DNA of 64,000 bases. It comes from an uncultured Dehalococcoidales bacterium (lineage in GTDB: Bacteria > Chloroflexota > Dehalococcoidia > GIF9 > AB-539-J10). The translations under genes were made by a program, and so were the position numbers. Below the pieces are notes generated by a model. It worked only from the letters and a program-made list of their open reading frames with translations. It was not told the DNA's origin and searched no databases. The stretch spans positions 9,258 to 73,257 of the forward strand of contig CAZZAC010000001.1 in the NCBI GenBank assembly GCA_964652095.1, written 5' to 3'. Positions 6,641-47,818 of this stretch are shown here, piece by piece. Within the stretch, counting starts at the first letter, position 1; each line of letters begins with the position of its first letter.

Positions 6641-8026
6641 ATGGATTACGATGTTCTAATTATCGGTGCCGGAATGTCTGGTCTTGCCGCTGGCATTAGA
6701 TTGGCCTACTACGGTAAAAGGGTCTGCATCGTGGAAAAACATTATCGCGTTGGGGGACTGAATTCCTTCTACAACCTGGGGGGACGTAAATTCGACGTCG
6801 GCCTTCATGCCATGACCAATTATGTCCCCAAAGGTGTTAGATTAGCACCCTTGCCCAAGCTGCTACGACAGCTCAAACTAAAAGCTGAAGATTTCGCCCT
6901 CTGCCCACAACGGATGTCAGAAATTAAATTTCCCAATAAAACCCTCGGATTTAATAACGACTTCAGCTTTTTTGTCCAAGAGGTCGTCGATAATTTCCCA
7001 ACGCAAGCTGACAACTTCCAAAAACTGCTTAAGACTATTTTCGAATATGATGAACTGAACCTGTATGCCAAACCGATTTCGGCTCGTGAAGTTGTGAGTT
7101 CTATTATTTCCGACCCACTCCTCAGCGATATGATTTTTTGCCCGCCTATGTTTTATGGAAATGCTCAAGAGAATGGCATGGAGTTCGGACAATTTGTTAT
7201 CATGTTTAAGAGTATCTTCTGCGAAGGCCTGGCTCGACCCCAAGCTGGGATACGCCAAATCCTCGATGTGCTGGTGAAAAAATATAAGTCTTGCGGCGGT
7301 GAATTAAAGATGAGGTGCACGGTAACAAGTCTCAAATGTGCTAATGACAGGGTTGAATCAATCTTGCTCGAAAACGGTGAAGTCCTGACAGCCGATAGGA
7401 TACTATCATCCGCTGGTTATGTTGAAACGATGAAACTGTTGACCGACTATGATTCTTCAAAATTAAATTGCCATGTGGGTCAAATTTCATTTGTGGAGTC
7501 TATTCTCATTTTAAATAAAGAGCCCGCTAAAATGGGCCACAACACAACAATGACCTTTTACAACAACTCAGATAGATTTGATCATCGAAAACCTGACGAG
7601 CTAGTCGATGTTTCCAGTGGCGTTATTTGCTGCCCTAATAACTTTCAATTCGAAAATCCTCTGCCGGAGGGCATGATCAGGATAACCAACTTGGCTAATT
7701 TCGACCTCTGGAACAGATTGAGTGAAGAAGAGTACAAAGCCCAGAAAGCTGCCTGGTTGGAAACCACGCTTAAAGAGGTGGTGAAATTTGTGCCCGATTT
7801 TCGCCATTCAATTGTTTTTAGCGATATCTTTACTCCAAAAACGATCCACAAATTCACCGGCCACATAAATGGTGCGGTCTATGGGACACCAAATAAAACC
7901 AAAACGGGAAAGACTCATTTAGACAATCTATTTATCTGCGGCACAGACCAGGGATTCCTGGGAATCGTGGGAGCAATGCTTAGCGGTATCTCCATGGCAA
8001 ATCTTCACGTTCTGCAGAAGACGTAG
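6641..8026 (+). CDS. FAD-dependent oxidoreductase, phytoene desaturase/amine oxidase (CrtI-like) family
   Basis: 461 aa. N-terminal dinucleotide fold [38 protein letters not shown]. Confidence 0.8.
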
Positions 8027-37934: not shown

Positions 37935-39632
37935 ATGAATTTAAAGGAGCTTATTTCGGTGGCCAGAGGGGAAATACCGGCTGATTTGCTCCTGAAAAAT
38001 GCCCGGATAGTAAATACTTTTGTTGGAGAAATAGAGCAAGCCGACGTGGCTATCTATGGCGATAGAATTGCCGGAGTAGGAGACTATGGTAAGGCCAAGG
38101 AAATTGTCGATTTACAAGGCAGGTTTTTAGCTCCCGGGCTGATTAACGGGCATACGCACATAGAAAGCTCTATGCTTCACCCGGCAAGGTATGCTCAGGC
38201 CGTGGTCCCCAGAGGCACTCTGGCTGTGGTCACCGACTTACATGAAATCGCCAACGTTTGTGGATTTGAAGGAATAAAATTCGTCACGGATTTGGCGCGA
38301 AAGCTCCCACTGGATATGCTATTCATGGCCCCTTCATGCGTGCCAGCAACCCATCTGGAGACATCAGGCGCCCGAATCAGCTCTAAGGAAGTAAAGAAAA
38401 TTCTAGCTCACCCTAATATAATCGGCTTAGGAGAGATGATGAACTTTCCCGGCGTGGTCAGTGGGGATGAAGAGGTTTTAAAGAAAATCAGTGCTTCAAA
38501 GGGCAAGGTTATTGATGGACACGCTCCGGGACTCGCTGGCAAGGAGCTAAATGCCTACTTGTCCGCTGGCATTCTTTCTGACCACGAATCCACTACGTTG
38601 GAAGAAGGGAGAGAGAAGTTGCGTCGGGGCATGTACCTGATGATTCGAGAGGGCTCTTCAGAGAAGAACCTGGACGCCCTTCTGCCTCTGGTTACCGATA
38701 ATACTTATAAAAGATGCTTCTTTGTGGTGGATGACCTTAGTTGCTTTGATTTACTTCGGGAAGGCGATATTGACGCTGTGGTACGAAAGGCTATTGACAG
38801 AGGCCTGGAGCCAATTCGCGCAATTCAGATGGCGACGATTAATACTGCTGAGTATTTCAGACTTTATGATAGAGGGGGCATTGGCCCGGGGTATATAGCC
38901 AACCTTATAACCATCACCGACCTGGCTAAATTAGAGATAGACATGGTGTTTTACCAGGGCAAGCTGGTGGCAAGGCAAGGCAAGCCCTTGTTCCCCTTGC
39001 CCCCTGTTACTCTGGAGCTAAGAGACACGGTACGCATTAAGCCTCCTATGGGGAAATCGCTGCAAATAGCCGCTGTCGATGAGACCTATCCAGTTATCGA
39101 AATCGTCCCCGGACAGATAGTCACCAAGAAGGCGGTGGAAAAGATGAAAGTTGTGGATTGGACAGTTATGCCCGATCTGGAGAGAGATATTCTGAAGCTG
39201 GTGGTGGTGGAACGGCACAAGGCTAGCGGCAATATCGGATTGGGATTAGTGAAGGGATTCGGCTTAAAGAAAGGAGCGTTAGCCTCGTCAGTGGCTCATG
39301 ACTCTCACAACATAATAGCGGTGGGTACCAATGACCTCGACATTCTTAAGGCAATTGAGGAAATTAATAGGCTGCAAGGCGGGCTGGTTGTTTGCGCCAA
39401 CCTGGAAATTCTCGCTTCTTTACCCTTGCCCATCGCTGGCCTGCTTTCCCCTGAGCCGCTGGAGGTAGTCGTGTCCCAGCATGAACAAGTGGAGAAGGCT
39501 GCCGCCAGCCTGGGGAACCTGCCTCCGGCTCCATTTGCCATCCTATCTTTCCTGGCATTGCCCGTGATTCCCGAACTCAGACTGACCGATTTAGGCCTGG
39601 TGGATGTGGTAGAGTTTAAGTTGCTCAAGTAG
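37935..39632 (+). CDS. ade: adenine deaminase
   Basis: 565 aa. Amidohydrolase metal site FLAPGLINGHTHIESSML and overall Ade length/organisation. Confidence 0.85.
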   Translation: MNLKELISVARGEIPADLLLKNARIVNTFVGEIEQADVAIYGDRIAGVGDYGKAKEIVDLQGRFLAPGLINGHTHIESSMLHPARYAQAVVPRGTLAVVTDLHEIANVCGFEGIKFVTDLARKLPLDMLFMAPSCVPATHLETSGARISSKEVKKILAHPNIIGLGEMMNFPGVVSGDEEVLKKISASKGKVIDGHAPGLAGKELNAYLSAGILSDHESTTLEEGREKLRRGMYLMIREGSSEKNLDALLPLVTDNTYKRCFFVVDDLSCFDLLREGDIDAVVRKAIDRGLEPIRAIQMATINTAEYFRLYDRGGIGPGYIANLITITDLAKLEIDMVFYQGKLVARQGKPLFPLPPVTLELRDTVRIKPPMGKSLQIAAVDETYPVIEIVPGQIVTKKAVEKMKVVDWTVMPDLERDILKLVVVERHKASGNIGLGLVKGFGLKKGALASSVAHDSHNIIAVGTNDLDILKAIEEINRLQGGLVVCANLEILASLPLPIAGLLSPEPLEVVVSQHEQVEKAAASLGNLPPAPFAILSFLALPVIPELRLTDLGLVDVVEFKLLK

Positions 39633-39643
39633 AATTAACTCCG
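39469..39643 (+). repeat. direct repeat, left copy (intact 3' end of ade)
   Basis: About 85% identical to 44294..44460 (eye alignment). Together they bracket a 4.65-kb accessory segment. Confidence 0.7.
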
Positions 39644-39664
39644 ATGCAATCGGAGTTTCCTATG
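39644..39664 (+). other. perfect 9-bp stem hairpin (aactccgat gcaa atcggagtt) immediately after the ade stop, at the left junction of the accessory segment
   Basis: Read directly. A near-identical hairpin (ctccgatgaaatcggag) occurs at 48196..48212. Confidence 0.4.
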
Positions 39665-39743
39665 CCGATTCTAGTTAGCGATAAATCCATTTCCCTTCAT
39701 TATATCTTCGCAGTTGTCAGCGGGTCGCCGATCAGCCGCGCCT

Positions 39744-40145
39744 TTATGCGTCGGCTGCAACGTCTTGTTGGGCGGTTATCTCTTCTTTCGGATTTGGACC
39801 GTATTTGTTGTCCCCAGGCTGGCTGTCTGTACAAGCGAGAACCAGAAACCAGATTGGGCCCGCAATCGGGATCAGATTTATCAACAAGTACCAACCGCTT
39901 TTCCCAACATCATGGAGCCGTCGAACCGATACGGCTAGCCCTGGAACAAAGACTGCGAGAGCATATAAAATAGATAATAGGCCAAGGCCAAATACTGCAA
40001 AGGTTAGTAGTCCGATGCCCAAGTCAATGAGAGAGGCCACAAGGCTGAAGATGAAATTGAAAAGAAAGAACATCCAGTATTCTTTCCGCCTCGCACGCCC
40101 ACTGAACACTGCATACTTTTTCAGCACTTTGATATACCAATTCAT
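39744..40145 (-). CDS. DUF805 domain-containing inner-membrane protein
   Basis: 133 aa. RARRKEYW followed by hydrophobic helices (YhaH/YhaI-like). Preceded by promoter-module copy R1. Confidence 0.7.
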   Translation of the reverse strand: MNWYIKVLKKYAVFSGRARRKEYWMFFLFNFIFSLVASLIDLGIGLLTFAVFGLGLLSILYALAVFVPGLAVSVRRLHDVGKSGWYLLINLIPIAGPIWFLVLACTDSQPGDNKYGPNPKEEITAQQDVAADA

Positions 40146-40345
40146 GTTGCTTCTCCTTTCGCTCGTTTGTCGTTTTGTCGGACGGCAAGCTGGATATTCT
40201 CGCTGTCCAACATCTATTCCTATACCTATTTCCTATACTTCTTCTATAGGCATGTACTATATGACAAGACAATATGAAATGTCAAGGATGAAATGTTAAG
40301 GACCTCTCTATTTAGATTGTGTTGCAATGTGAAGGATAATTAGAC
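40146..40345 (-). promoter_or_regulatory. conserved promoter/5'-UTR module, copy R1: -35 TTGACA (40285..40280), 18-nt spacer, -10 TATAGT (40261..40256), about 100-nt leader with hairpin cctatagaagaagtatagg and RBS AAAGGAG
   Basis: Blocks of this sequence recur at 43201..43290, 44125..44275 and 46299..46485, each immediately 5' of a different minus-strand gene. Confidence 0.55.
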
Positions 40346-40420
40346 CACATGTATCATTATTTGATCCGACTCACAGATCCAAATTGTTTGCCACCACAAC
40401 ACAAAGCTCTGTCTATTTCC

Positions 40421-41236
40421 TCATCCCGGTTTTCTGAATTCCAGACAATACCCATGATACTGACCATGCATTTTCCAAATACCGTCTACAAGTACCGCTT
40501 TCATTGTTTCTGGAACCAGATGAACAGGAACGGAGGTGTCTACTTTATTATCCTGACTTGAACGCGACAAACGAAGGAAACGAGCCACGGTTCGGGCTAC
40601 CTGTTCCGATTCATCAGCAATTACTATTTTACTTCCCGGTCGGGCAACACGGATCATCTCATCAATGGCCTTCTTCTTTTCAGAAAAAAAGTTGATCCCA
40701 CCAACGTGAAAAACACTGTCAAATGAGTCCGATTTAAAAGGCAACTCCTCTGCCTTCCCCAAGAAAAGGTCTACCGGCCATCCTCGGGTCGTGACCAACC
40801 TGTGACAATTAGTCAGCTGCGCCGCTGAGATGTCCAGGCCATATATGTCACCCACTTTTGGAGACTCAAATAGGTAAGGAAGATTACCACCAGACCCTAT
40901 CGAAACCTCCAGAACTCGTCCATTGTTTAGTTCCAATCTGTGCAAAATCTCTGTGCGGGCCTTACGTTCTCCACCCATAGGCAAAAACGATAACCTATCA
41001 ATAATTGTTTCGAAACGTGAAAATCTATTATAGAATCGAGCGAACCGTTGGTTAAGACCCTCCAGTTCCTGTAAATCGATAAAGTGCACAATGCCGTTTT
41101 TAATGATATAGCTTCTTTCACAGTGCGAGCAAAACAACTCCCCCTCATTCCCACTTGTATTACCTGATTCATCGCGAAGTGTAAGTTCAGTTTGACAACC
41201 AGGACAACATAGCAACTCTAATGTTGAGCGCTTCAT
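40421..41236 (-). CDS. Trm112-like zinc-ribbon / class I SAM-dependent methyltransferase fusion
   Basis: ORF 40421..41251, start at MKRS. N-terminal LELLCCPGCQ...LFCSHC zinc ribbon, then a Rossmann-fold MTase region (LEVSIGSGGN...YGLDIS). Confidence 0.65.
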   Translation of the reverse strand: MKRSTLELLCCPGCQTELTLRDESGNTSGNEGELFCSHCERSYIIKNGIVHFIDLQELEGLNQRFARFYNRFSRFETIIDRLSFLPMGGERKARTEILHRLELNNGRVLEVSIGSGGNLPYLFESPKVGDIYGLDISAAQLTNCHRLVTTRGWPVDLFLGKAEELPFKSDSFDSVFHVGGINFFSEKKKAIDEMIRVARPGSKIVIADESEQVARTVARFLRLSRSSQDNKVDTSVPVHLVPETMKAVLVDGIWKMHGQYHGYCLEFRKPG

Positions 41237-41317
41237 TGCTATTCCTCCCAAGCTATTATGTTTTGGTCTAACGTCTGAAATCAGAGGCGGCTGTAAGCCG
41301 TCCGCTAGAATGAATTG

Positions 41318-41491
41318 TTATGTCAGTTCTTTCAAGATATGCCGGGCAAGATATTCATCTATTTCGTTATGCCTCGGAACGGGCTGCTTTTTACCTGTGG
41401 CAGGATTTTTGTATAGGTCGTGACGAGGCCCATGTCTCACAAGAATGCACCCTGCGTCAGATAGCCTCTTGATGAGGTCTTTCCTCCTCAT
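41318..41491 (-). CDS. hicA: HicA-family mRNA interferase toxin (57 aa; not in the supplied ORF track because it is shorter than 60 aa)
   Basis: Hand translation of the minus strand gives MRRKDLIKRLSDAGCILVRHGPRHDLYKNPATGKKQPVPRHNEIDEYLARHILKELT, the HicA/YcfA pattern (..GW..VR..GSHH.F.HP...VP.H...I). Its ATG overlaps the upstream stop as ATGA. Confidence 0.6.
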   Translation of the reverse strand: MRRKDLIKRLSDAGCILVRHGPRHDLYKNPATGKKQPVPRHNEIDEYLARHILKELT

Positions 41492-41697
41492 ACTGATAAC
41501 TTAAGTTCTTTAACCAGATGCTCATCTGGTACGTCTTCCATCGTCATCAGTGCATAGGCATCTTTCATATTATCTTCAAGTTCTTCTAATGTTTTCCCCT
41601 GCGTCATTATCTCAGGGTGTTCAAGTAACTTCCCTACCCAGAATTTCTCACCTCTCCAGTAAATCATGTTTAATTTAGTTTCCATTTTCTGCCTCAC
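41488..41697 (-). CDS. hicB: HicB-like (UPF0150) antitoxin
   Basis: 69 aa small acidic protein (..YWRGEKFWVGKLLEHPEIMTQGKTLEELEDNMKDAYAL..), translationally coupled to hicA. Confidence 0.5.
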   Translation of the reverse strand: MRQKMETKLNMIYWRGEKFWVGKLLEHPEIMTQGKTLEELEDNMKDAYALMTMEDVPDEHLVKELKLSV

Positions 41698-41824
41698 AAA
41701 ATCCCTTTTAGTATCTTAGCATAGTTTACTGAATTTCGGAGACACTATACTTAATTCCAAAGAGTATTTTGCCTCCTCATCTACATCAAGAGACAAGCAT
41801 AGCGTGCCCTTAAATGTGATACCT

Positions 41825-42409
41825 TTAATCATCACGTAAACCGGTATTCCTTTGCTCCAGCTTTAGCAATCGTTTCTTAACGGACAATCCACCCCCATAT
41901 CCAACAAGCTCTCCGTCACTCCCGATTACCCGATGGCAGGGAACGATTATGCTGATGGGGTTTGTCCTGTTAGCATTACCAACCGCTCGAACAGCCCTTG
42001 GACTGCCAATATCCTTTGCTATTTGTCCATATGTGGACGTGGCTCCGTAGGGAACTCTCATCAATGCCTTCCAGACTCTTCTCTGAAAATCCGTCCCCGC
42101 CATGAGCAGAGGAATGTCAAACTCTTTTCTATTTCCGTTGAGGTACTCATCAAGTTGTTTTCTCGTTTTCTCCAGGACTTCATCCTTTTGCTCGACAAAC
42201 TCGGCATCCAGTTTCTTCCTGATCCAGTCATCAATTGCTCTCCTTCCCTTTTTGTCTCCGAACCCGAGCAGACAGAGCTTGCCGCCGAAAGAACCAAGTA
42301 CCAGTTCGCCGATCTCAGTCTTGTGACGTTGAATGTTGACCTGGTTTATTCTTGCCTCCAAAGAATGTTGTCGGCGACGTGCAGTGTCGCTGCAGTGTCT
42401 TGCGTCCAT
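41825..42409 (-). CDS. ogt: methylated-DNA--protein-cysteine methyltransferase (Ogt/MGMT)
   Basis: ORF 41825..42499. Active-site motif PCHRVIG and DNA-binding helix YGQIAKDIGSPRAVRAVGNANRTNPISIIV. Start uncertain (no canonical start after the upstream gene's stop); Met31 chosen, giving a 64-bp overlap with the upstream methyltransferase gene. Confidence 0.7.
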   Translation of the reverse strand: MDARHCSDTARRRQHSLEARINQVNIQRHKTEIGELVLGSFGGKLCLLGFGDKKGRRAIDDWIRKKLDAEFVEQKDEVLEKTRKQLDEYLNGNRKEFDIPLLMAGTDFQRRVWKALMRVPYGATSTYGQIAKDIGSPRAVRAVGNANRTNPISIIVPCHRVIGSDGELVGYGGGLSVKKRLLKLEQRNTGLRDD

Positions 42410-43152
42410 GGTTCGCCCGTCTTGCGTGCCACGATCATGATTTCCATCTCGTCCAGGTCGAGTGTCCTTCTTCCCCAGCTCCCGGCAGTTCCACCCCATA
42501 TGCTGAGGACAGACATACCGGCGATCTGGAGCAGGAGACGTAACTCCGTCGGGACGAAAGACCGTTCTCGAACGGCAATACGAGGCAGTCCTTCTTGCGG
42601 CGGGTGCTCCGACGATTCGACCATGGTTATCGGGTCGAATCGTCCCTCAGCCACGTCCTTGTTTTGATACCTGCGGAGCATGGCTGCTGCGTTGAGAACG
42701 GTGAATACGACCTTCGCCCCTGTTTTCAGGCTTTGGGAGATGTTGCGGAGAATGGCCAGTGGTTGACTTATGGGATCATCAGTCTGACTGAGAAGTCCCA
42801 AAGCCCCTTCGCATAGGCAGATCGCCGCATCGAACTTTTCCGGGAACGCGAACTGCGTTGCATCTGAGCGGACCCATTCTACCTTCACGTTTTCGGCTTC
42901 GGCTTTAGTCGCTGCCTTTGCCAGCATCTCCGCGGATAAGTCCAGTCCTGTTACTGAGTAACCGCGTTTAGCAAGTTCTATGGAATGCCGGCCCGTCCCA
43001 CACCCGACATCCAGAACTGAGTCGCCGGCCTTGAGTTCCAGTTCCTCGAGCAAGAAGTCTACCTCGTCGACTGTGTTCTTGGTGAAGACGTTATTATCGT
43101 AGATCGGTGCGTGAGCGTCAAAGAACTGCTCCCATGTCGTTTTCTCTTGCAT
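42346..43152 (-). CDS. class I SAM-dependent methyltransferase
   Basis: ORF 42346..43200. VLDVGCGTGRHSIELAKRGYSVTGLDLS. Start moved to Met17 (MQEKTTW) because AAGGAG lies 5 nt upstream and the -10 of module R2 would otherwise overlap the first ATG. Confidence 0.7.
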   Translation of the reverse strand: MQEKTTWEQFFDAHAPIYDNNVFTKNTVDEVDFLLEELELKAGDSVLDVGCGTGRHSIELAKRGYSVTGLDLSAEMLAKAATKAEAENVKVEWVRSDATQFAFPEKFDAAICLCEGALGLLSQTDDPISQPLAILRNISQSLKTGAKVVFTVLNAAAMLRRYQNKDVAEGRFDPITMVESSEHPPQEGLPRIAVRERSFVPTELRLLLQIAGMSVLSIWGGTAGSWGRRTLDLDEMEIMIVARKTGEPWTQDTAATLHVADNILWRQE

Positions 43153-43200
43153 CTTTGCTCCTTCTGTAAACCTGTCAGTCCACCTCTTGTGTATAGGCAT

Positions 43201-43290
43201 CTACTCTATAGCGACGCTGTATGAGGTGTCAAGGGTTTCTCTATTTAGGTTGTTTTGAGGTGTGAGGGATAATTCGGTGTAACGGAAAAT
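43201..43290 (-). promoter_or_regulatory. conserved promoter module, copy R2 (truncated leader): -35 TTGACA (43232..43227), 16-nt spacer, -10 TATAGA (43210..43205)
   Basis: Upstream block (gggataattcggtgtaacg...ctaaatagagaaacccTTGACA) matches the R1 and R3 upstream blocks. Confidence 0.5.
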
Positions 43291-43338
43291 ATCACTGGCG
43301 CGCTCTTGCACGTCCGGTGCATGCGCTTGTTCGACGTG

Positions 43339-44124
43339 TCATATGGTTATCACGCCTTCCAAATAGAGTACTGCCTTACCAGAAATCTTTACTCGATCTC
43401 CGGCATGGACGCAGAACAACTCGCCACCGCGCTTCGATATCTGAAATGCATGCAGATTCTTCTTGTGGAGTTCGCCCGCCCAGTATGGAGCCAGAACACA
43501 ATGCGCAGAACCTGTCACCGGGTCCTCCGGTATCCCAACCCGGGGGGCGAAAACTCTTGAGACGAAGTCGCTCCGACTTCCCCTGGATGTCACGATGATG
43601 CCACGACACTCAACCCGCTCAAGCGCAAAAAAATTGGGCTGAAGTTCCCGAACAGCTTCCTCGTTCTCCAGTACCACAAGTAAACCTTCGACGGAACCCA
43701 GTATTGCGATTGGTGTCACACCAAGTGCCTCCTTCAAGCCAGACGGCGGAATCCAGCTATGGACGGGTCTGGAGGGAAAATCCATTTCCAGAAGACCATC
43801 GCGTTTACAAACGATGAGTTGCCCGCTTTTCCGCGTATGGAAACGGATTTCCTCTTCCGACCAGTCTTGGCAGGCGAAAAGGACAAAGGCGCTCGCCAGT
43901 GTTGCGTGCCCGCAAAGCGCAACTTCAGTCGTTGGAGTGAACCATCGGAGGTCAAACCCGTCGTCATTGCGAACGAGGAAGGCGGTCTCTGACAAGTTAT
44001 TCTCGGCAGCGATGGACTGAAGCATGTTATCGTCGATCCACGAATCCAGTATGCAAACAGCGGCCGGATTACCCGAGAAGACTTCGGAGGTAAAGGCATC
44101 AACCTGGTAGATGGGTATTTTCAT
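43339..44124 (-). CDS. PhzF-family (phenazine-biosynthesis-like) isomerase
   Basis: 261 aa. N-terminus MKIPIYQVDAFTSEVFSGNPAAVC is characteristic of the PhzF/YddE family. Confidence 0.8.
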   Translation of the reverse strand: MKIPIYQVDAFTSEVFSGNPAAVCILDSWIDDNMLQSIAAENNLSETAFLVRNDDGFDLRWFTPTTEVALCGHATLASAFVLFACQDWSEEEIRFHTRKSGQLIVCKRDGLLEMDFPSRPVHSWIPPSGLKEALGVTPIAILGSVEGLLVVLENEEAVRELQPNFFALERVECRGIIVTSRGSRSDFVSRVFAPRVGIPEDPVTGSAHCVLAPYWAGELHKKNLHAFQISKRGGELFCVHAGDRVKISGKAVLYLEGVITI

Positions 44125-44275
44125 TATTCTCGTTCTTTCTTCGCCGAATATCTATTTTTGTATCTATTTTCTATGCTTATTCTATAGGCACGTACTGTAT
44201 GACGAGGCGTTATGAAATGTCAATGGTTTCCCCATTTAGGTCGTGTTGAAATGTGAGTTATGACTCGATGCGGTA
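44125..44275 (-). promoter_or_regulatory. conserved promoter/5'-UTR module, copy R3: -35 TTGACA (44223..44218), 18-nt spacer, -10 TACAGT (44199..44194)
   Basis: Same architecture and sequence blocks as R1; immediately 5' of the PhzF-family gene. Confidence 0.55.
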
Positions 44276-44293
44276 TTTATAGTGATATAGTTG

Positions 44294-44460
44294 TATCCCA
44301 GCATGAATAAGTAGAGAAAGCTGCCGCCAGCCTGGGTAACTTGCCCCCAGCACCCTTTGCCCTCCTTTCCTTCCTAGCCCTGCACGTGATTCCCGAACTC
44401 AGACTGACTGATTCAGGCCTGGTGGACGTGGCAGAGTTTAAGTTGCTCGAGTAGAACTAA
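44294..44460 (+). pseudogene. direct repeat, right copy: degenerate fragment of the ade 3' end (in-frame stop after SQHE)
   Basis: About 85% identical to 39469..39643, including the gene's last codons and stop (..gagtttaagttgctcRagtag). Confidence 0.7.
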
Positions 44461-44551
44461 CATGATAACGCCCGCGCTCAGCGGTAAATTGCGAGCGGCT
44501 ACGCGAGCAATTTGTCCGGCTGCAGCGCCTTGTTAGGGCGCCTTGGCATAT

Positions 44552-44947
44552 CTATAGATTCTCCAGCGCTTTGCCAATGCGTTTTTTATCTGCATTATCA
44601 GCGAATACTTTCAGTGCTCGTACCATTGCCTCGGTCATTTCCCCAATATTCCAGCCTTTAGTCTCTGGTGTGACTTTCATTCGAGCATATGTTAGATGGG
44701 CTACCTCTTTGCCAGTGCGAGATCGAGCCGGTTCCAACGCTGCTGGAAAATCAGGACGAACTTTTTTCCACTGTTCTGCAGAGCTGAAGAAGTCACATGC
44801 TATCGCATCATCTTTCCGAACATTTGACGGCTCCCAAATAAAGTCAATTAATGCCCTTAAGTGAATTGTGAATGACTCTAAGAGGGCGTTGATAACAAAC
44901 TGAGAATTGTTTGGCTGAGATAGCCCTTTTGCGGCGCCTACCATCAT
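44552..44947 (-). CDS. hypothetical protein (131 aa), no recognisable family
   Basis: ORF with GAGG 5 nt before ATG ATG; lies in the accessory array. Function unknown. Confidence 0.45.
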   Translation of the reverse strand: MMVGAAKGLSQPNNSQFVINALLESFTIHLRALIDFIWEPSNVRKDDAIACDFFSSAEQWKKVRPDFPAALEPARSRTGKEVAHLTYARMKVTPETKGWNIGEMTEAMVRALKVFADNADKKRIGKALENL

Positions 44948-45248
44948 GTTGACCTCATAAGCTAGGTGCTCTCCGCAAATTCCTTTAACTCCTCATCAGA
45001 TGGAATCTCTCTAGGCATTTGGTAATCCCTCGCACCTCGCTGACGTCCGAGTTCAGGAGCGCCAAGGGTGATATGCGAACCGGCCCTTTGCGGCAACCCA
45101 AGTTACTTTGGATTATGGCAGATTAGCATAGGATTGTAAACTGGACATGTTATTGCCCTCTTGCCGCAAAGCTGCATCGGAACGACTTTCGGAAGCAACT
45201 TTGTGGCCCAAGGGAGGAGCGCCCTTAGCAGTCGGTTTCAAAGAGTTG

Positions 45249-46298
45249 TTAGCCAGCACATGGTTTTGTCCAGTCTCTGCTACTTTCTTCAACGTCAAAT
45301 CGAATTGGATCAGACACATAAGCTGCTGCAAACTGTGCATTGCACACTACCTCGCAAGGTGTGACATTCGGGTTCTGGATAGTAAAAAGCGTTGGTCGAA
45401 AGTCCCACGTATCGGGTCCCAATTTGTCAAAAGCTATCCCAAACTTCTTCAATGGACAAGCAGTCTGGCCAATCCACGCACAGATGATATTTGTCTTTTC
45501 TTTTACCTTTGGCCTATTTAATGCCAATCCGGGAGTTACTCTGATACCCCTTTGGCTGAGTTGATCGAGTGTTTCACACAATGCTCCTGCTACGAGATCA
45601 GGAATCGCAATGAAATCTTCGATTTCTAATGAGCCACCGTCTATTTCTGAAAGCCCAAATACAATGCGGTTAATGCTTTCCTGAGGCATAAACATTCTTA
45701 TTGTTGCTTCTGCGAATCTACCAAAAAGTTGTTTGTGTTCTTCGTTAGCAACTATCGGATCGCTGTCGGTGAACCAGACAATGTTTTGCTCATTGGAAAA
45801 TACCGTTGCTATTACTTGTGCTCCAAAGTGTACTACTCTTAACATGTTTTCCAGTGTACTTTTCTTGATTGCAGAAAGTGCCGGCTTTACCTCAAGGAAC
45901 TGTTCCGCGAACATGTATTTCATCTTGGTATCAACTGCAAATGTAACTAGTAATCTATCCATTGCGCCTGCGCAAGACAAAAAAGCTGGCAGAGCTCTCA
46001 GTTTTATCCTGTCGTTGAGCCCCTTATACGACATTCTACGGCTCTTCAGATGAAAATCATCCCTGAGCATTTTTCTAGCACCATTGAAATAATCAGCACC
46101 AGAACGTCCAACAACCAAGAAGCTGTAGGTTTGATATCTCCCGTGGACACGACTGTAGTCTGAGAAGACAAAGAGTGTTTTGTCCTTAGACAAGTCTGGT
46201 ATTAACGAGGGATTCTTCCATGCTTCTGCGACTATCATGTCGCAAATATAGTTAATGAATCCCGCTCTTTCATCTCCAGGGCGTCGTATTTTGGCCAT
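45249..46298 (-). CDS. hypothetical protein (349 aa), no recognisable family; loose PD-(D/E)xK-like spacing (TDSD...EEHK) noted only as speculation
   Basis: Long ORF preceded by promoter-module copy R4; clean start MAKIRRPG. Confidence 0.5.
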   Translation of the reverse strand: MAKIRRPGDERAGFINYICDMIVAEAWKNPSLIPDLSKDKTLFVFSDYSRVHGRYQTYSFLVVGRSGADYFNGARKMLRDDFHLKSRRMSYKGLNDRIKLRALPAFLSCAGAMDRLLVTFAVDTKMKYMFAEQFLEVKPALSAIKKSTLENMLRVVHFGAQVIATVFSNEQNIVWFTDSDPIVANEEHKQLFGRFAEATIRMFMPQESINRIVFGLSEIDGGSLEIEDFIAIPDLVAGALCETLDQLSQRGIRVTPGLALNRPKVKEKTNIICAWIGQTACPLKKFGIAFDKLGPDTWDFRPTLFTIQNPNVTPCEVVCNAQFAAAYVSDPIRFDVEESSRDWTKPCAG

Positions 46299-46485
46299 GC
46301 CCTTCTCTTTTGTATTCGCAGCTAGAGATCAAATTGTTCAACAGTTATGTTGGATAGTGTATTTCCAGCGAAAAGACATTGAGTGTCCGATTGCGATATC
46401 CTGCTGGCTAACATCTATTTTATACCTATTTTCTATACTTACTCTATAGGCATGTACTGTATGACGAGGCACAGCAAAGTGCAGG
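46299..46485 (-). promoter_or_regulatory. conserved 5'-UTR/-10 module, copy R4 (-10 TACAGT at 46461..46456; -35 side replaced because the module abuts the glyQS 3' end)
   Basis: Leader block acatctattttatacctattttctatactt.ctctataggcatgtactgtatgac is nearly identical to R1 and R3. Confidence 0.5.
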
Positions 46486-46489
46486 ATTC

Positions 46490-47818
46490 TCACTTCTGCC
46501 TTGTGGCCCATAATGCTGAGGCGTCGAAAGCCTCTCCTTTGAGTTTGGCCTCTAATATCTTCCCTAGTTCCTCTACGGGCACTCGAATTTGCGCCAGGCT
46601 GTCCCTCTCCCGGATGGTAACCTGCTTATCCTCCAGGGATTCAAAATCTATGGTAACGCAGAACGGGGTGCCGATTTCGTCCTGACGTCTGTACCTCCGC
46701 CCTATGCTTTGTGAATCATCGTAATCGGTCACGAAATTTGGACACAGTTTGTTGAAAACCTCTTTAGCCAGAGGGGTTAATTTTTCATTCCTGCTTAAGG
46801 GCAAAACAGCTACCTTAATAGGAGCCAGAGAACGGTGCAGGTGTAGAACTGTTCTCTTTTCCCCTTCGACTTCCTCTTCATCATAGGCATCGATGAGAAA
46901 AGCCAGGACAGAGCGGTCGACGCCAGCCGAGGGCTCAATAGCATAGGGAACGTACTTCTCGCCAGCCTCAGCATCATAGTAACCGAGCTCTTTACCGCTA
47001 TGCTTGGCATGCTGAGTAAGGTCAAAATCGCCCCTGTTGGCTATACCCTCCAGCTCTGACCAGCCCATAGGAAATAGATACTCGATGTCATAGCAGTCCC
47101 TGGCATAGTGGGCGAGCTCATCTTTGCCGTGCTGGCGCAGGCGAAGATTTTCCTTCCTGACACCCAGTTTGACATACCAGTCAAACCTCTCCTTGACCCA
47201 GTAATCAAGCCACTCTTCGTCAGTCCCGGGCTTAACGAAGTACTCCAGCTCCATGTGCTCAAACTCCCTGGTTCTGAATATGAAGTTGCCTGTGGTGATT
47301 TCATTGCGGAAAGATTTGCCTATCTGGGCGATGCCCAAAGGCAACTTTTTTCTGGAAGTGGTGATTACATTATCAAAGTTAACGAATATGCCCTGGGCAG
47401 TTTCGGGGCGGAGGTAGATTGTGCTTGCCTCCTCCTCCACAGGACCCATAGAAGTCTTAAACATCAAGTTGAACATGCGGGGCTCGGTTAGCTCACCATC
47501 ACATTTGGGACATCTCTTGCCCTCTATTTCGTTAGCGCGCCACCTCAGGTGGCAAGATTTACACTCTACCAGGGGGTCTGTGAAGCTATCAATGTGGCCG
47601 CTAGCGGCCCAGACTCCGGGGTGCATCATTATTGATGTGTCCAGACCTACTACATCATCCCGCTCGTGGACTATTGACTTCCACCAGGCGTCTCTAACAT
47701 TGCGCTTAAGCTCCACCCCCATAGGGCCATAATCCCAGCAGCTAGCTAAACCGCCATATATTTCGCTGCTGGGGAAAACAAGCCCCCTCCGCTTACACAG
47801 AGAGACGATTTTATCCAT
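46490..47818 (-). CDS. glyQS: glycine--tRNA ligase (alpha2 homodimeric type)
   Basis: ORF 46490..47899. Class II aaRS motifs (FRNEITTGNFIFRTREFEHMELEYF). Start moved to MDKIVSLCKRRGLVFPSSEIYGG, the conserved GlyRS N-terminus. Confidence 0.85.
   Translation of the reverse strand: MDKIVSLCKRRGLVFPSSEIYGGLASCWDYGPMGVELKRNVRDAWWKSIVHERDDVVGLDTSIMMHPGVWAASGHIDSFTDPLVECKSCHLRWRANEIEGKRCPKCDGELTEPRMFNLMFKTSMGPVEEEASTIYLRPETAQGIFVNFDNVITTSRKKLPLGIAQIGKSFRNEITTGNFIFRTREFEHMELEYFVKPGTDEEWLDYWVKERFDWYVKLGVRKENLRLRQHGKDELAHYARDCYDIEYLFPMGWSELEGIANRGDFDLTQHAKHSGKELGYYDAEAGEKYVPYAIEPSAGVDRSVLAFLIDAYDEEEVEGEKRTVLHLHRSLAPIKVAVLPLSRNEKLTPLAKEVFNKLCPNFVTDYDDSQSIGRRYRRQDEIGTPFCVTIDFESLEDKQVTIRERDSLAQIRVPVEELGKILEAKLKGEAFDASALWATRQK

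Follow-up and report, generated by a model that had tools for sequence, protein, structure and literature searches.

Why would one and the same non-coding module stand in front of several unrelated genes in a single chromosomal interval? This question is raised by 39.6-46.5 kb of the window (the whole 64,000-nt stretch of DNA analysed here), which belongs to a lineage of uncultured sediment Dehalococcoidia. Four copies of the module (R1 to R4), all on the minus strand, were recovered there by repeat search, MAFFT alignment and an HMM of 128 positions, which was built from related copies and used to place those of the window (Table 1). Two module 20-mers have three matches each at no more than 3 mismatches, against 0.00 expected by chance, and no fifth copy was found throughout the 64 kb. 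The first-pass annotation had noticed the four copies with their common blocks at these four places, and its gene assignments stand (DUF805, MTase plus Ogt, PhzF, a 349-aa protein without Pfam match, and GlyRS). However, the segments 40146-40208 and 46299-46409, which it had included in R1 and R4, are cassette-specific leader and not shared.

We consider that the interval is probably a chromosomal integron-type cassette array without a local integrase, of the CALIN class. The module is best read, on balance, as the spacer unit of such an array, its right part being the point where cassettes are joined and its left part completing a promoter.

Table 1. Coordinates of the array, the module copies and their candidate promoters, the attC sites and other array elements in the window
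Feature	Position	Strand	Remarks
Whole cassette array	39633..46489	-	Based on variable content between GlyRS and ade in relatives
ade stop	39630-39632	+	Bounds the array distally
glyQS stop	46490-46492	-	Bounds the array on the entry side
R1, class B	40209-40346	-	HMM positions 5-128, E=2e-32; 14-nt internal duplication of -35 region
R1 junction	40211|40210		G|TT, then DUF805 cassette (TTGGAC...)
R2, class B	43190-43282	-	HMM positions 2-94, E=5e-18; 3' part missing; start is G|TTACAC of PhzF attC
R3, class B, full length	44147-44271	-	HMM positions 4-128, E=5e-33; PhzF cassette next
R4, class A, array-entry copy	46410-46488	-	HMM positions 47-128, E=9e-17; left part missing
R4 junction	46412|46411		G|TT, then u349 cassette (TTAGCC...)
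R1 candidate promoter	-35 40285-40280, -10 40261-40256	-	TTGACA, 18-nt spacer, TATAGT
R2 candidate promoter	-35 43232-43227, -10 43208-43203	-	TTGACA, 18-nt spacer, TAGAGT
R3 candidate promoter	-35 44223-44218, -10 44199-44194	-	TTGACA, 18-nt spacer, TACAGT
attC, DUF805 cassette	39717..39773	-	Covariance model 32.7 bits, E=9e-7; non-seed
attC, HicBA cassette	41266..41323	-	R'' ACATAAC, R' GTTAGAC; 53.5 bits; seed sequence
attC, PhzF cassette	43277..43335	-	R'' GTCGAAC, R' GTTACAC; covariance model 38.3 bits, E=2e-8
attC, u131 cassette	44463..44538	-	R'' CCCTAAC, R' GTTATCA; covariance model 28.5 bits, E=1.6e-5; non-seed
u349 cassette	45249..46411	-	349-aa ORF
Relic of ade 3' end	44288..44461	+	86% identical to 39466-39639
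Relic of E2, second recurrent non-coding element	41700..41830	-	Between Ogt and HicB

In about 60 related Dehalococcoidia contigs, the interval is always flanked by the stop codons of the convergent genes glyQS and ade, while its gene content varies even among close relatives, and the earlier view of an accessory interval of mobile gene cassettes is upheld. The cargo includes a HicAB toxin-antitoxin, methyltransferases, the DUF805 protein and unknown proteins, and the 349-aa protein has no Pfam or PADLOC match. At the distal end, the junction in these contigs is invariably G|TTARTT directly ahead of the ade stop (G|TTARTT-CTA). The relic of the ade 3' end inside the array, whose junction G|TTAGTT-CTA is also found at true array ends, marks a former distal end, and comparable relics exist in the related loci L017, L029 and L032. 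The E2 relic of the window lacks the attI-like unit that follows E2 in relatives. Where glyQS ends are identical between lineages, the first cassettes are identical as well; they differ only at a divergence of at least 4%, so recent activity of the array is not demonstrated.

A structural alignment of 14 attC sequences places 83.5% of cells in pairs, compared with 25-35% when the partners are slid, with 26 compensatory cells and a score reached by 0 of 500 shuffles. Minimum-energy folds of attC sites (z=-4.0) have a bulge pattern in the 5' arm and unpaired spacers, similar to class 1 attC sites. With the covariance model, four attC sites were detected in the window, all within the array, and none elsewhere in the 64 kb at E<1; together with 55 further matches in 349 kb of related Dehalococcoidia loci, all 59 lie on the module strand. 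The DUF805 attC overlaps the 3' end of its ORF, and its R' is degenerate in the window while relatives have GTTGAGA. The HicBA attC abuts the MT-Trm112 cassette with no intervening module, whereas R2 follows directly on the PhzF attC, whose R'' is complementary to the left end of its cassette (TTCGAC). In the u349 cassette, the left end TTAGCC is complementary to a GGCTAAC that overlaps the stop codon (45249-45255; inverted repeat I1), and the remainder of the attC is atypical or decayed (45044-45250).

The module itself might superficially be taken for a folded single-strand attC like the Vibrio cholerae repeats, since it recurs between cassettes as a unit of about 128 nt that is conserved across the species and ends in GTT. 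This is very improbable: tested on both strands, the whole module has no fold (z=+0.3 and +0.04, compared with z=-4.0 for a neighbouring attC), and for this reason it was rejected as an attC. Moreover, the attC covariance model matches no module, and true attC sites are found upstream of modules. The first-pass annotation had seen no symmetry, which holds for the module but not for the interval: attC palindromes stand immediately upstream of two module copies and elsewhere in the interval, and the four attC sites had been missed. No Rfam match was found for the module.

The module consists of two parts. Its right ~45-62 bp (GCCTCGTCATACAGTACATGCCTATAGAATAAGTATAGAAAATAGGTATAAAAATAGATG|TT) contain three direct YTATARA repeats spaced by about one helical turn, and a box GGTATAA, which inverts the module's own left end, TTATACC. 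The right ~62 bp adjoin the glyQS stop in every lineage, and in related contigs many different cassettes come after the glyQS-abutting copies (n=32). In the window, R4 begins 2 nt past that stop and only its right ~62 nt are common to the internal copies, in agreement with the earlier remark that R4 is truncated where it abuts glyQS. The left half of internal copies (66 bp) carries TTGACA and begins exactly at G|TTATAC of the preceding attC. Not all copies are intact: R2 has lost the attI-like right end and is fused to the MTase-Ogt cassette (L029 has the identical truncated junction), and the terminal GTT of R3 is mutated to ATT (44149-44147). As a repeat of 62-128 bp, the module could also mediate homologous recombination.

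The boundary between module and cassette is sharp. Behind 81 module ends stand 53 distinct cassettes, as would be expected of an attI-type insertion site; several of these cassettes occur behind both copy classes, and 77 of the 81 ends have a forward ORF after them. Conservation stays at about 90% until GTT and then gives way to a weak AGGC consensus, and similarity between copies stops exactly at G|TT. The "conserved leader" described earlier is sequence left of the cassette junction; the small stem noticed in it exists (5-6 bp) but has no thermodynamic significance (leader z=-0.23). ORFs start at a median of 24 nt past the junction, and each cassette supplies its own ribosome-binding site. 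On the other side, 22 attC sites are directly followed by G|TTATACCGAATTA, the module start, and 37 by the next cassette or the ade end. Internal copies have G|TT at both sides and are separable from either neighbour. The left end of a cassette tends to match the R'' of the attC belonging to it: on average, 2.5 of 4 variable positions are complementary, and 13 of 42 cases are perfect. When the pairs were shuffled the mean was 1.59, and 0 of 2000 shuffles attained the observed value.

These junctions bear on the proposal that the module is a portable promoter/5'-UTR owned by each gene and moving with the gene downstream. The promoter consensus is present, and ahead of DUF805 the variant with the 14-nt duplication is found both behind MT-Trm112 (window and L019) and behind PhzF (L054 and L081). 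However, the same variant stands behind MT-Trm112 with other downstream genes in L026 and L072, and the sequence peculiar to a cassette starts right at G|TT and pairs with the attC of that cassette. Furthermore, the PhzF, HicBA, MT-Trm112 and TTACCT-start cassettes recur among lineages in differing left contexts, the identical gene being found behind the truncated glyQS-abutting copy, a full internal copy, E2 or a bare attC. For example, in L069 and L028 the PhzF cassette start (TTCGRCGAAG) lies behind copies of class A, and the MT-Trm112 start follows a module end in L075 but the HicBA attC in the window. We regard gene-owned promoters as unlikely. The recombination sites which the first-pass annotation had named as an alternative are in part what was found, as attC palindromes are present and the module 3' end is the junction, and the promoter reading survives alongside. 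Overall, that annotation is partly supported: its observation is confirmed and its interpretation was half right.

Another possibility is that the module is a passive remnant of an ancestral glyQS-ade spacer, spread by duplication or homologous recombination and serving neither site-specific recombination nor transcription. The ade relics show that array segments were concatenated or duplicated, no integrase is nearby, and no very recent turnover was seen. Against this, the first 46 nt of non-coding sequence behind glyQS have 94% pairwise identity across lineages, compared with 71% at glyQS third codon positions. The G|TT boundaries are exact on both sides and match the integron core-site consensus, both promoter hexamers and their spacing persist in 41 of 45 copies, and the left 66-bp half shows no similarity to the glyQS end. 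A passive repeat seems to us rather doubtful.

Taken together, TTGACA in the left half and the TACAGT-like hexamer in the right part would form a near-consensus sigma-70 promoter directed toward the next cassette. The three module promoters are among the best-scoring promoter-like matches (10-11/12) in 39.5-46.6 kb, and of 45 distinct related copies, 41 have preserved a TTGACA-like and a TACAGT-like hexamer, always 18 nt apart. The outward promoter and its hexamers had been recognized earlier, with a spacer of 16-18 nt that is in fact 18 nt in all three copies; this length is not optimal. Nearly all module positions are conserved, and the promoter hexamers are not distinct from their surroundings.

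The conserved block upstream of the -35, also noticed earlier, is real: about 45 nt at ~90% conservation, with no other known role. It might be the operator of a regulon in which one transcription factor controls the unrelated cassettes, and in mobile integrons both Pc and PintI are LexA-controlled. However, neither a palindrome nor a known operator motif was recognized in it, it is missing from the glyQS-abutting copy and the E2-fused copies, and an operator leaves the G|TT boundaries unexplained. As the whole explanation this is quite improbable, but an operator role could be an added layer on the cassette array.

The closest known systems each share part of this organization. As in a CALIN, a cluster of attC sites lacking an integron integrase in the IntegronFinder definition (Cury et al. 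2016, PMC4889954; Neron et al. 2022, PMC9024848), several co-oriented attC sites no more than 4 kb apart lie each at a cassette ORF 3' end, with no intI nearby and typical cargo. The usual interpretation of CALINs is that of degraded integrons, whereas this array is entered at a fixed, strongly conserved site adjoining the 3' end of a housekeeping gene, where dozens of different cassettes are found across lineages, and conserved non-attC modules are interspersed. The gene-less promoter cassettes in sedentary chromosomal integrons of Vibrio (Blanco et al. 2024, PMC11014356) are likewise ORF-less units between cassette junctions with a sense promoter by which the cassettes downstream would be activated; but each has a normal attC and their sequences differ from one another (PMC11014356), while here a single highly conserved 128-bp unit without its own attC is reused many times, and its right half is the array entry site. 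The VCRs of the Vibrio cholerae superintegron are also lineage-wide, highly similar repeats of ~125 bp between chromosomal cassettes, but they are strongly palindromic attC sites, whereas here the attC sites vary and the conserved repeat is non-palindromic. The attI plus Pc platform resembles the module as a double-stranded unstructured site heading an array, with cassette joining at the G|TT of GTTRRRY, direct repeats left of the crossover and a promoter into the cassettes; the module differs in not lying beside intI and in having several copies per array, and its sequence shows no similarity to those of plasmid-borne integrons.

In tblastn searches with IntI1 and XerD queries (E up to 1), neither the window nor any array locus yielded an integron integrase, and precomputed Pfam annotation lists none in the additional 6.5 kb of contig beyond the glyQS side of the window. 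Since the searched loci have none, attI function in trans is what we infer: the right part of the module may be the double-stranded attI-type site of an integron integrase that another part of the genome provides, with cassettes joined at the G|TT of its right end. An attI normally adjoins intI and occurs once per integron, and repeated internal attI-like copies are outside the standard integron model. The first cassette, which has no -35 in front of it, would probably be read through from glyQS, while the internal copies may restart transcription deeper in the array, behaving as gene-less promoter cassettes with an attI-like end.

The four repeated blocks described in the first-pass annotation are real: a repeat search and a MAFFT alignment recovered their shared blocks, two 20-mers of the module each have three matches with at most three mismatches (0.00 expected in the 64-kb window) and no further matches elsewhere in that window, and a 128-position profile, built from related copies, placed all four copies (R1 to R4, see the table). 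The genes had been assigned correctly; the repeats in the proposed ranges hold, except that R1 and R4 had been extended into cassette-specific leader sequence. The small hairpin noted in the leader is not significant (z=-0.23 for the leader fold), and the Rfam covariance search suggested along with it gave 0 matches at the gathering score in the whole window and 0 at E up to 1 in 39600-46600. With neither an Rfam match nor a stable conserved fold, the module is not recognisable as a known cis-regulatory RNA. As single-stranded DNA it folds no better than its shuffles on either strand (z=+0.3 and +0.04). Since neither module nor leader folds better than shuffles, the readings of the module as an attC (folded integron site) and of the leader as a hairpin were dropped; the attC covariance model described below also has no match in any module.

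Outside the window, a 19-nt module pattern was found in seven stretches in Dehalococcoidia MAGs and in 64 metagenome stretches. Two module patterns had 0 matches in viral contigs, and blastn gave no match between the module and plasmids. Exact-protein look-ups indicated that the array recurs in sister samples, and for DUF805, u349 (a 349-aa ORF) and HicA, every match came from this one population and its array. By tblastn with window proteins, the module-bearing interval is variable and lies between glyQS (GlyRS 86-98% identical) and the convergent ade, and PhzF, MT-Trm112, HicBA, Ogt, DUF805 and u131 (a 131-aa ORF) recur in it in varying combinations, together with many other genes. A scan for a tRNA or tmRNA as integration target found none, and PADLOC on the cassette proteins gave generic methyltransferase similarity only.

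The module copies fall into two classes. Class A copies, such as R4, begin right after the glyQS stop, and only their right ~62 nt are common to other copies; class B copies are internal and cover the full 128 nt. In both classes, per-position conservation is about 90% up to ...AAAAATAGATGTT and is followed by a weak AGGC consensus, and the module end and this consensus read together as the integron core site, GTTRRRY. In total, 53 different sequences were counted downstream of 81 module ends, and the same cassette can stand behind class A in one contig and behind class B in another, for example a cassette starting TTACCT, PhzF, HicBA and a small cassette starting TTAGGTGACAAATT. A forward ORF follows nearly every module end (77 of 81), with its start at a median of 24 nt downstream. 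The initial interpretation is partly supported: its cassette and promoter parts stand, but the module does not belong to the downstream gene, and the attC sites had been overlooked.

An attC site is bounded by an inverse core site R'' (RYYYAAC) and a core site R' (GTTRRRY), the AAC of the former pairing with the GTT of the latter. It is an imperfect palindrome that varies in sequence and keeps its structure, with extrahelical bases on the R''-L'' arm and an unpaired spacer between the R and L boxes. GC-rich imperfect hairpins ending in GTTATAC precede the class B copies. In their folds, R''-AAC and GTT-R' form the two ends, the 5' arm carries single-base bulges (e.g. GGTT-G-CAGCCG-A-C), and spacers such as AAG and GGCC stay unpaired; the minimum-energy fold has z=-4.0. 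The alignment column of the first bulge is unpaired in 14 of 14 sequences, and the fold pattern resembles the class 1 attC motif (...TTCAAGCCGAC...GGCTTAAC...GTTAG...). In the 14-sequence seed alignment, 83.5% of cells are paired in the proposed pairs, versus 25-35% with slid partners, and the three AAC/GTT pairs, which are present in the new window attCs too, form in 12-13 of the 14 sequences (90.5% of cells). Moreover, six pairs are changed on both sides, with 26 compensatory cells, and the covariation score is 0.375 versus 0.146 in shuffles, none of which reaches it (0 of 500).

From this alignment, and not from the IntegronFinder reference model, we built a covariance model and ran it without filters on the whole window, where it detected the four array sites of the table and nothing else with E below 1. 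In 349 kb of related loci it detected 55 more sites. The attCs lie at the 3' ends of the cassette ORFs, and all 59 are co-oriented, on the same strand as the ORFs and modules.

Coordinates of module copies and attC sites in the window
Feature	Position	Strand	Basis and remarks
module R1	40209-40346	-	profile positions 5-128, with 14-nt internal duplication
module R2	43190-43282	-	profile positions 2-94
module R3	44147-44271	-	profile positions 4-128
module R4	46410-46488	-	profile positions 47-128
attC	39717-39773	-	covariance model; no close relative in seed alignment
attC	41266-41323	-	covariance model
attC	43277-43335	-	covariance model
attC	44463-44538	-	covariance model; no close relative in seed alignment

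The left ends of the cassettes (TTRRRY) are complementary to the R'' of the next attC downstream, which is their own attC. The mean is 2.5 of 4 variable positions versus 1.59 in shuffles (0 of 2000 shuffles as high), and the complementarity is perfect in 13 of 42 cassettes; this is the signature of cassettes passing through a circular form. The cassettes and attCs agree with integron structure in every feature tested, and the window cassettes are integron-type cassettes. An 11-nt inverted repeat flanking u349 was also considered as a chance occurrence, which we rejected, as the repeat fits the rule of complementarity between the left end and the cassette's own R''.

The attC sites also define the module as a unit. 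Directly after 22 of the 59 attCs comes G|TTATACCGAATTA..., the module left end (the bar marks the junction), and after the remaining 37 the next cassette or the ade end comes at once. For example, the MT-Trm112 cassette begins immediately behind the HicBA attC (G|TTAGACC, at 41271), the start of this cassette comes after a module end in a related locus (L075), and the PhzF attC is found both with and without a following module. Because attCs occur with and without a module next to them, the internal module is a discrete ORF-less unit that is separable from both neighbours, and in the 22 copies it is bounded by G|TT on both sides, from the G|TT of the attC to that of the next cassette.

Only the right part of the module is universal, and it occurs in four left contexts: the glyQS end, the class B left half, an element named E2, and other sequences including a locus near serS before an AbiV gene. 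The class B left half was examined as a diverged glyQS 3' end, which was rejected, as local and global alignments were no better than shuffles. Between lineages, identity is 94% across the 46 non-coding nt that follow the glyQS stop, versus 71% at glyQS third codon positions, so this sequence is under selection. In the consensus, the right part carries three direct YTATARA repeats at 11-13 nt spacing, and GGTATAA lies 9 nt before the terminal G and is the inverse of the module left end TTATACC; the direct repeats and the inverse box suggest a simple site of the attI type (integron entry site). As at an attI junction, no fold is predicted, and behind the 32 copies that abut glyQS stand many different cassettes, all starting TT. 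The module most likely functions as a combined attI-like cassette-junction site and outward promoter.

The second locus (L049 5880-6820, L043 2619-2689) has the module right half downstream of a class II (Lys/Asn-type) tRNA synthetase gene, serS, a DUF169 gene and a small ORF, directly before the AbiV (HEPN) abortive-infection gene, which starts at G|TTGGCAAC; a cassette with a start matching that of AbiV is the first after glyQS in L055 and L066. E2 is a recurrent non-coding element of ~95 nt (window 41700-41830; L021 10650-10783; L032 7900-8036; L054 3930-4068) with 13-nt perfect terminal inverted repeats (GGGGACACCATAC ... GTATGGTGTCCCC). It begins immediately behind an attC G|TT, and it is often joined to the final ~43 nt of the module. 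In the window, E2 has decayed, and a deletion at a GAA(A)TT microhomology has joined it to the HicBA cassette.

As to the predicted promoter, the class B left half supplies the -35 (TTGACA), and the -10 (TACAGT) is located at the start of the common right part. The hexamers reported earlier are indeed present, with a spacer that is always 18 nt, within the 16-18 nt of a sigma-70 promoter. TTGACA-18-TATAGT, TACAGT or TAGAGT agree with the consensus at 10-11 of 12 positions and are among the best-scoring promoter-like matches in the region, and both hexamers with the 18-nt spacer occur in 41 of 45 distinct class B copies, 36 of which have a perfect TTGACA. Conservation extends over the whole module, so the hexamers do not exceed the flanking positions in this respect. 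Class A copies have no -35, and they start 2 nt past the glyQS stop, with no terminator in the gap, so the first cassette is probably co-transcribed with glyQS. On the opposite strand (window plus, e.g. 40311-40340), promoter-like matches pointing into the upstream cassette are found across the module left end and the attC R' box (TTGAAA-17-TATAAC in the consensus, TTTAGA-18-GATAAT in R1), which could be chance.

Some window cassettes show further peculiarities. The genes for the SAM methyltransferase and Ogt (41825-43200) make up one two-gene cassette, since they share a 16-nt overlap and no attC separates them, and the truncated module before it (positions 2-94) was inherited, as the same junction is found in L029. 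Compared with L072 (2927-3010), the u131 ORF of the window (44947-45030) is truncated at the N terminus, where a 1-nt deletion (GAGAGCACC versus GAGAAGCACC in L072) splits off a 17-codon upstream ORF; given this deletion, u131 may be a pseudogene, or its translation may begin internally. About 210 nt (45044-45255) separate the u349 stop and R'' (GGCTAAC) from the u131 cassette start (G|TCAGCG, 45044). This stretch holds no recognisable single attC and contains a promoter-like TTTACA-17-CATAAT with an upstream TG (45140-45112), and its last ~25 nt (CCTGAACTCGGAC) are common to L072, where a different cassette lies upstream. The R' of the DUF805 attC is degenerate in the window and reads GTTGAGA in relatives. 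After this attC comes an ORF-less stretch of ~85 nt (39640-39716), which has a perfect 9-bp hairpin (39637-39657) followed by G|TTAATT at its end and looks like a tiny gene-less terminal cassette doubling as a bidirectional DUF805/ade terminator.

At its distal end, the array invariably closes with G|TTARTT, abutting the ade stop codon, from which the unoccupied site can be reconstructed as ...ATAGATG|TTAATT-CTA; the empty site would read ...ATAGATG|TTAATTCTA.... At the proximal end, the first cassette is common to lineages with identical glyQS ends and differs only in lineages with at least 4% divergence, so that turnover is real but possibly not current. Relics of the ade 3' end are found inside arrays (window 44288-44461, cf. 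39466-39639; L017 4366-4654; L029 ~1360-1382; L032 ~7840-7900), each joined to an attC by G|TTARTT-CTA as at true array ends and followed downstream by a module or E2 and then more cassettes. The two window copies (44288-44461 and 39466-39639) are only 86% identical. Apparently, arrays gained segments beyond an old distal end, either by Campbell-type single crossover or by tandem duplication.

Using IntI1 and XerD sequences as tblastn queries (E up to 1), we found no tyrosine recombinase in the 64-kb window or in ~60 related array loci; the sole match came from L068, an unrelated locus that had matched the module search pattern by chance. The last 18 kb of the contig were covered by the precomputed Pfam annotation, in which no integrase is listed. 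The array differs from a complete (sedentary chromosomal) integron, which has intI adjacent to attI at its head, in that its head abuts glyQS. A CALIN is defined by IntegronFinder as at least two attC sites clustered within 4 kb with no intI nearby (PMC4889954), and the array, with 4 attC sites within 4.8 kb and an integrase not found nearby, is a CALIN by this definition.

Compared with a usual integron, this platform lacks an adjacent intI, has its entry site joined onto the end of a housekeeping gene, and repeats that entry site, together with a promoter half, inside its own array. Gene-less promoter cassettes are known from Vibrio superintegrons, where they have ordinary attCs and mutually different sequences (PMC11014356). 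Like them, the module is ORF-less and bounded by recombination points (22 copies); unlike them, it has no attC of its own, with neither a model match nor a predicted fold. Integrons have been reported in Chloroflexi in general by Cury et al. (PMC4889954), and in the literature we found no paper linking integrons, attC sites and Dehalococcoidia.

It is possible, although we consider it rather doubtful, that the module is a new integron unit, namely a portable attI-plus-promoter cassette of a platform that is anchored at the glyQS 3' end and whose integrase is encoded elsewhere. Such a unit would use a double-stranded attI-type end instead of a folded attC. The circular module would read GGTATAA-AAATAGATG-TTATACC, with its junction reading ...AAAAATAGATG|TTATACCGAATTA..., and it could be placed anywhere in the array, each copy adding an entry point and a transcription start. 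If true, this would be an integron whose platform has become separated from the integrase and has multiplied within the array.

Integron arrays lacking a neighbouring integrase are usually dismissed as decayed remnants, and cassettes distant from the Pc promoter are usually considered silent. Here, an array of the integrase-less kind carries an entry site that is strongly conserved across the whole lineage and adjoins the end of an essential gene, to which it is fused, and one conserved promoter-bearing unit is reused within it. For annotation, the "promoter repeat" belongs to a cassette array, and four attC sites are to be added. If the unit works as we infer, the array would stay expressible and open to insertion at several points, and the well-characterised cassette biology of integrons would extend to Dehalococcoidia.
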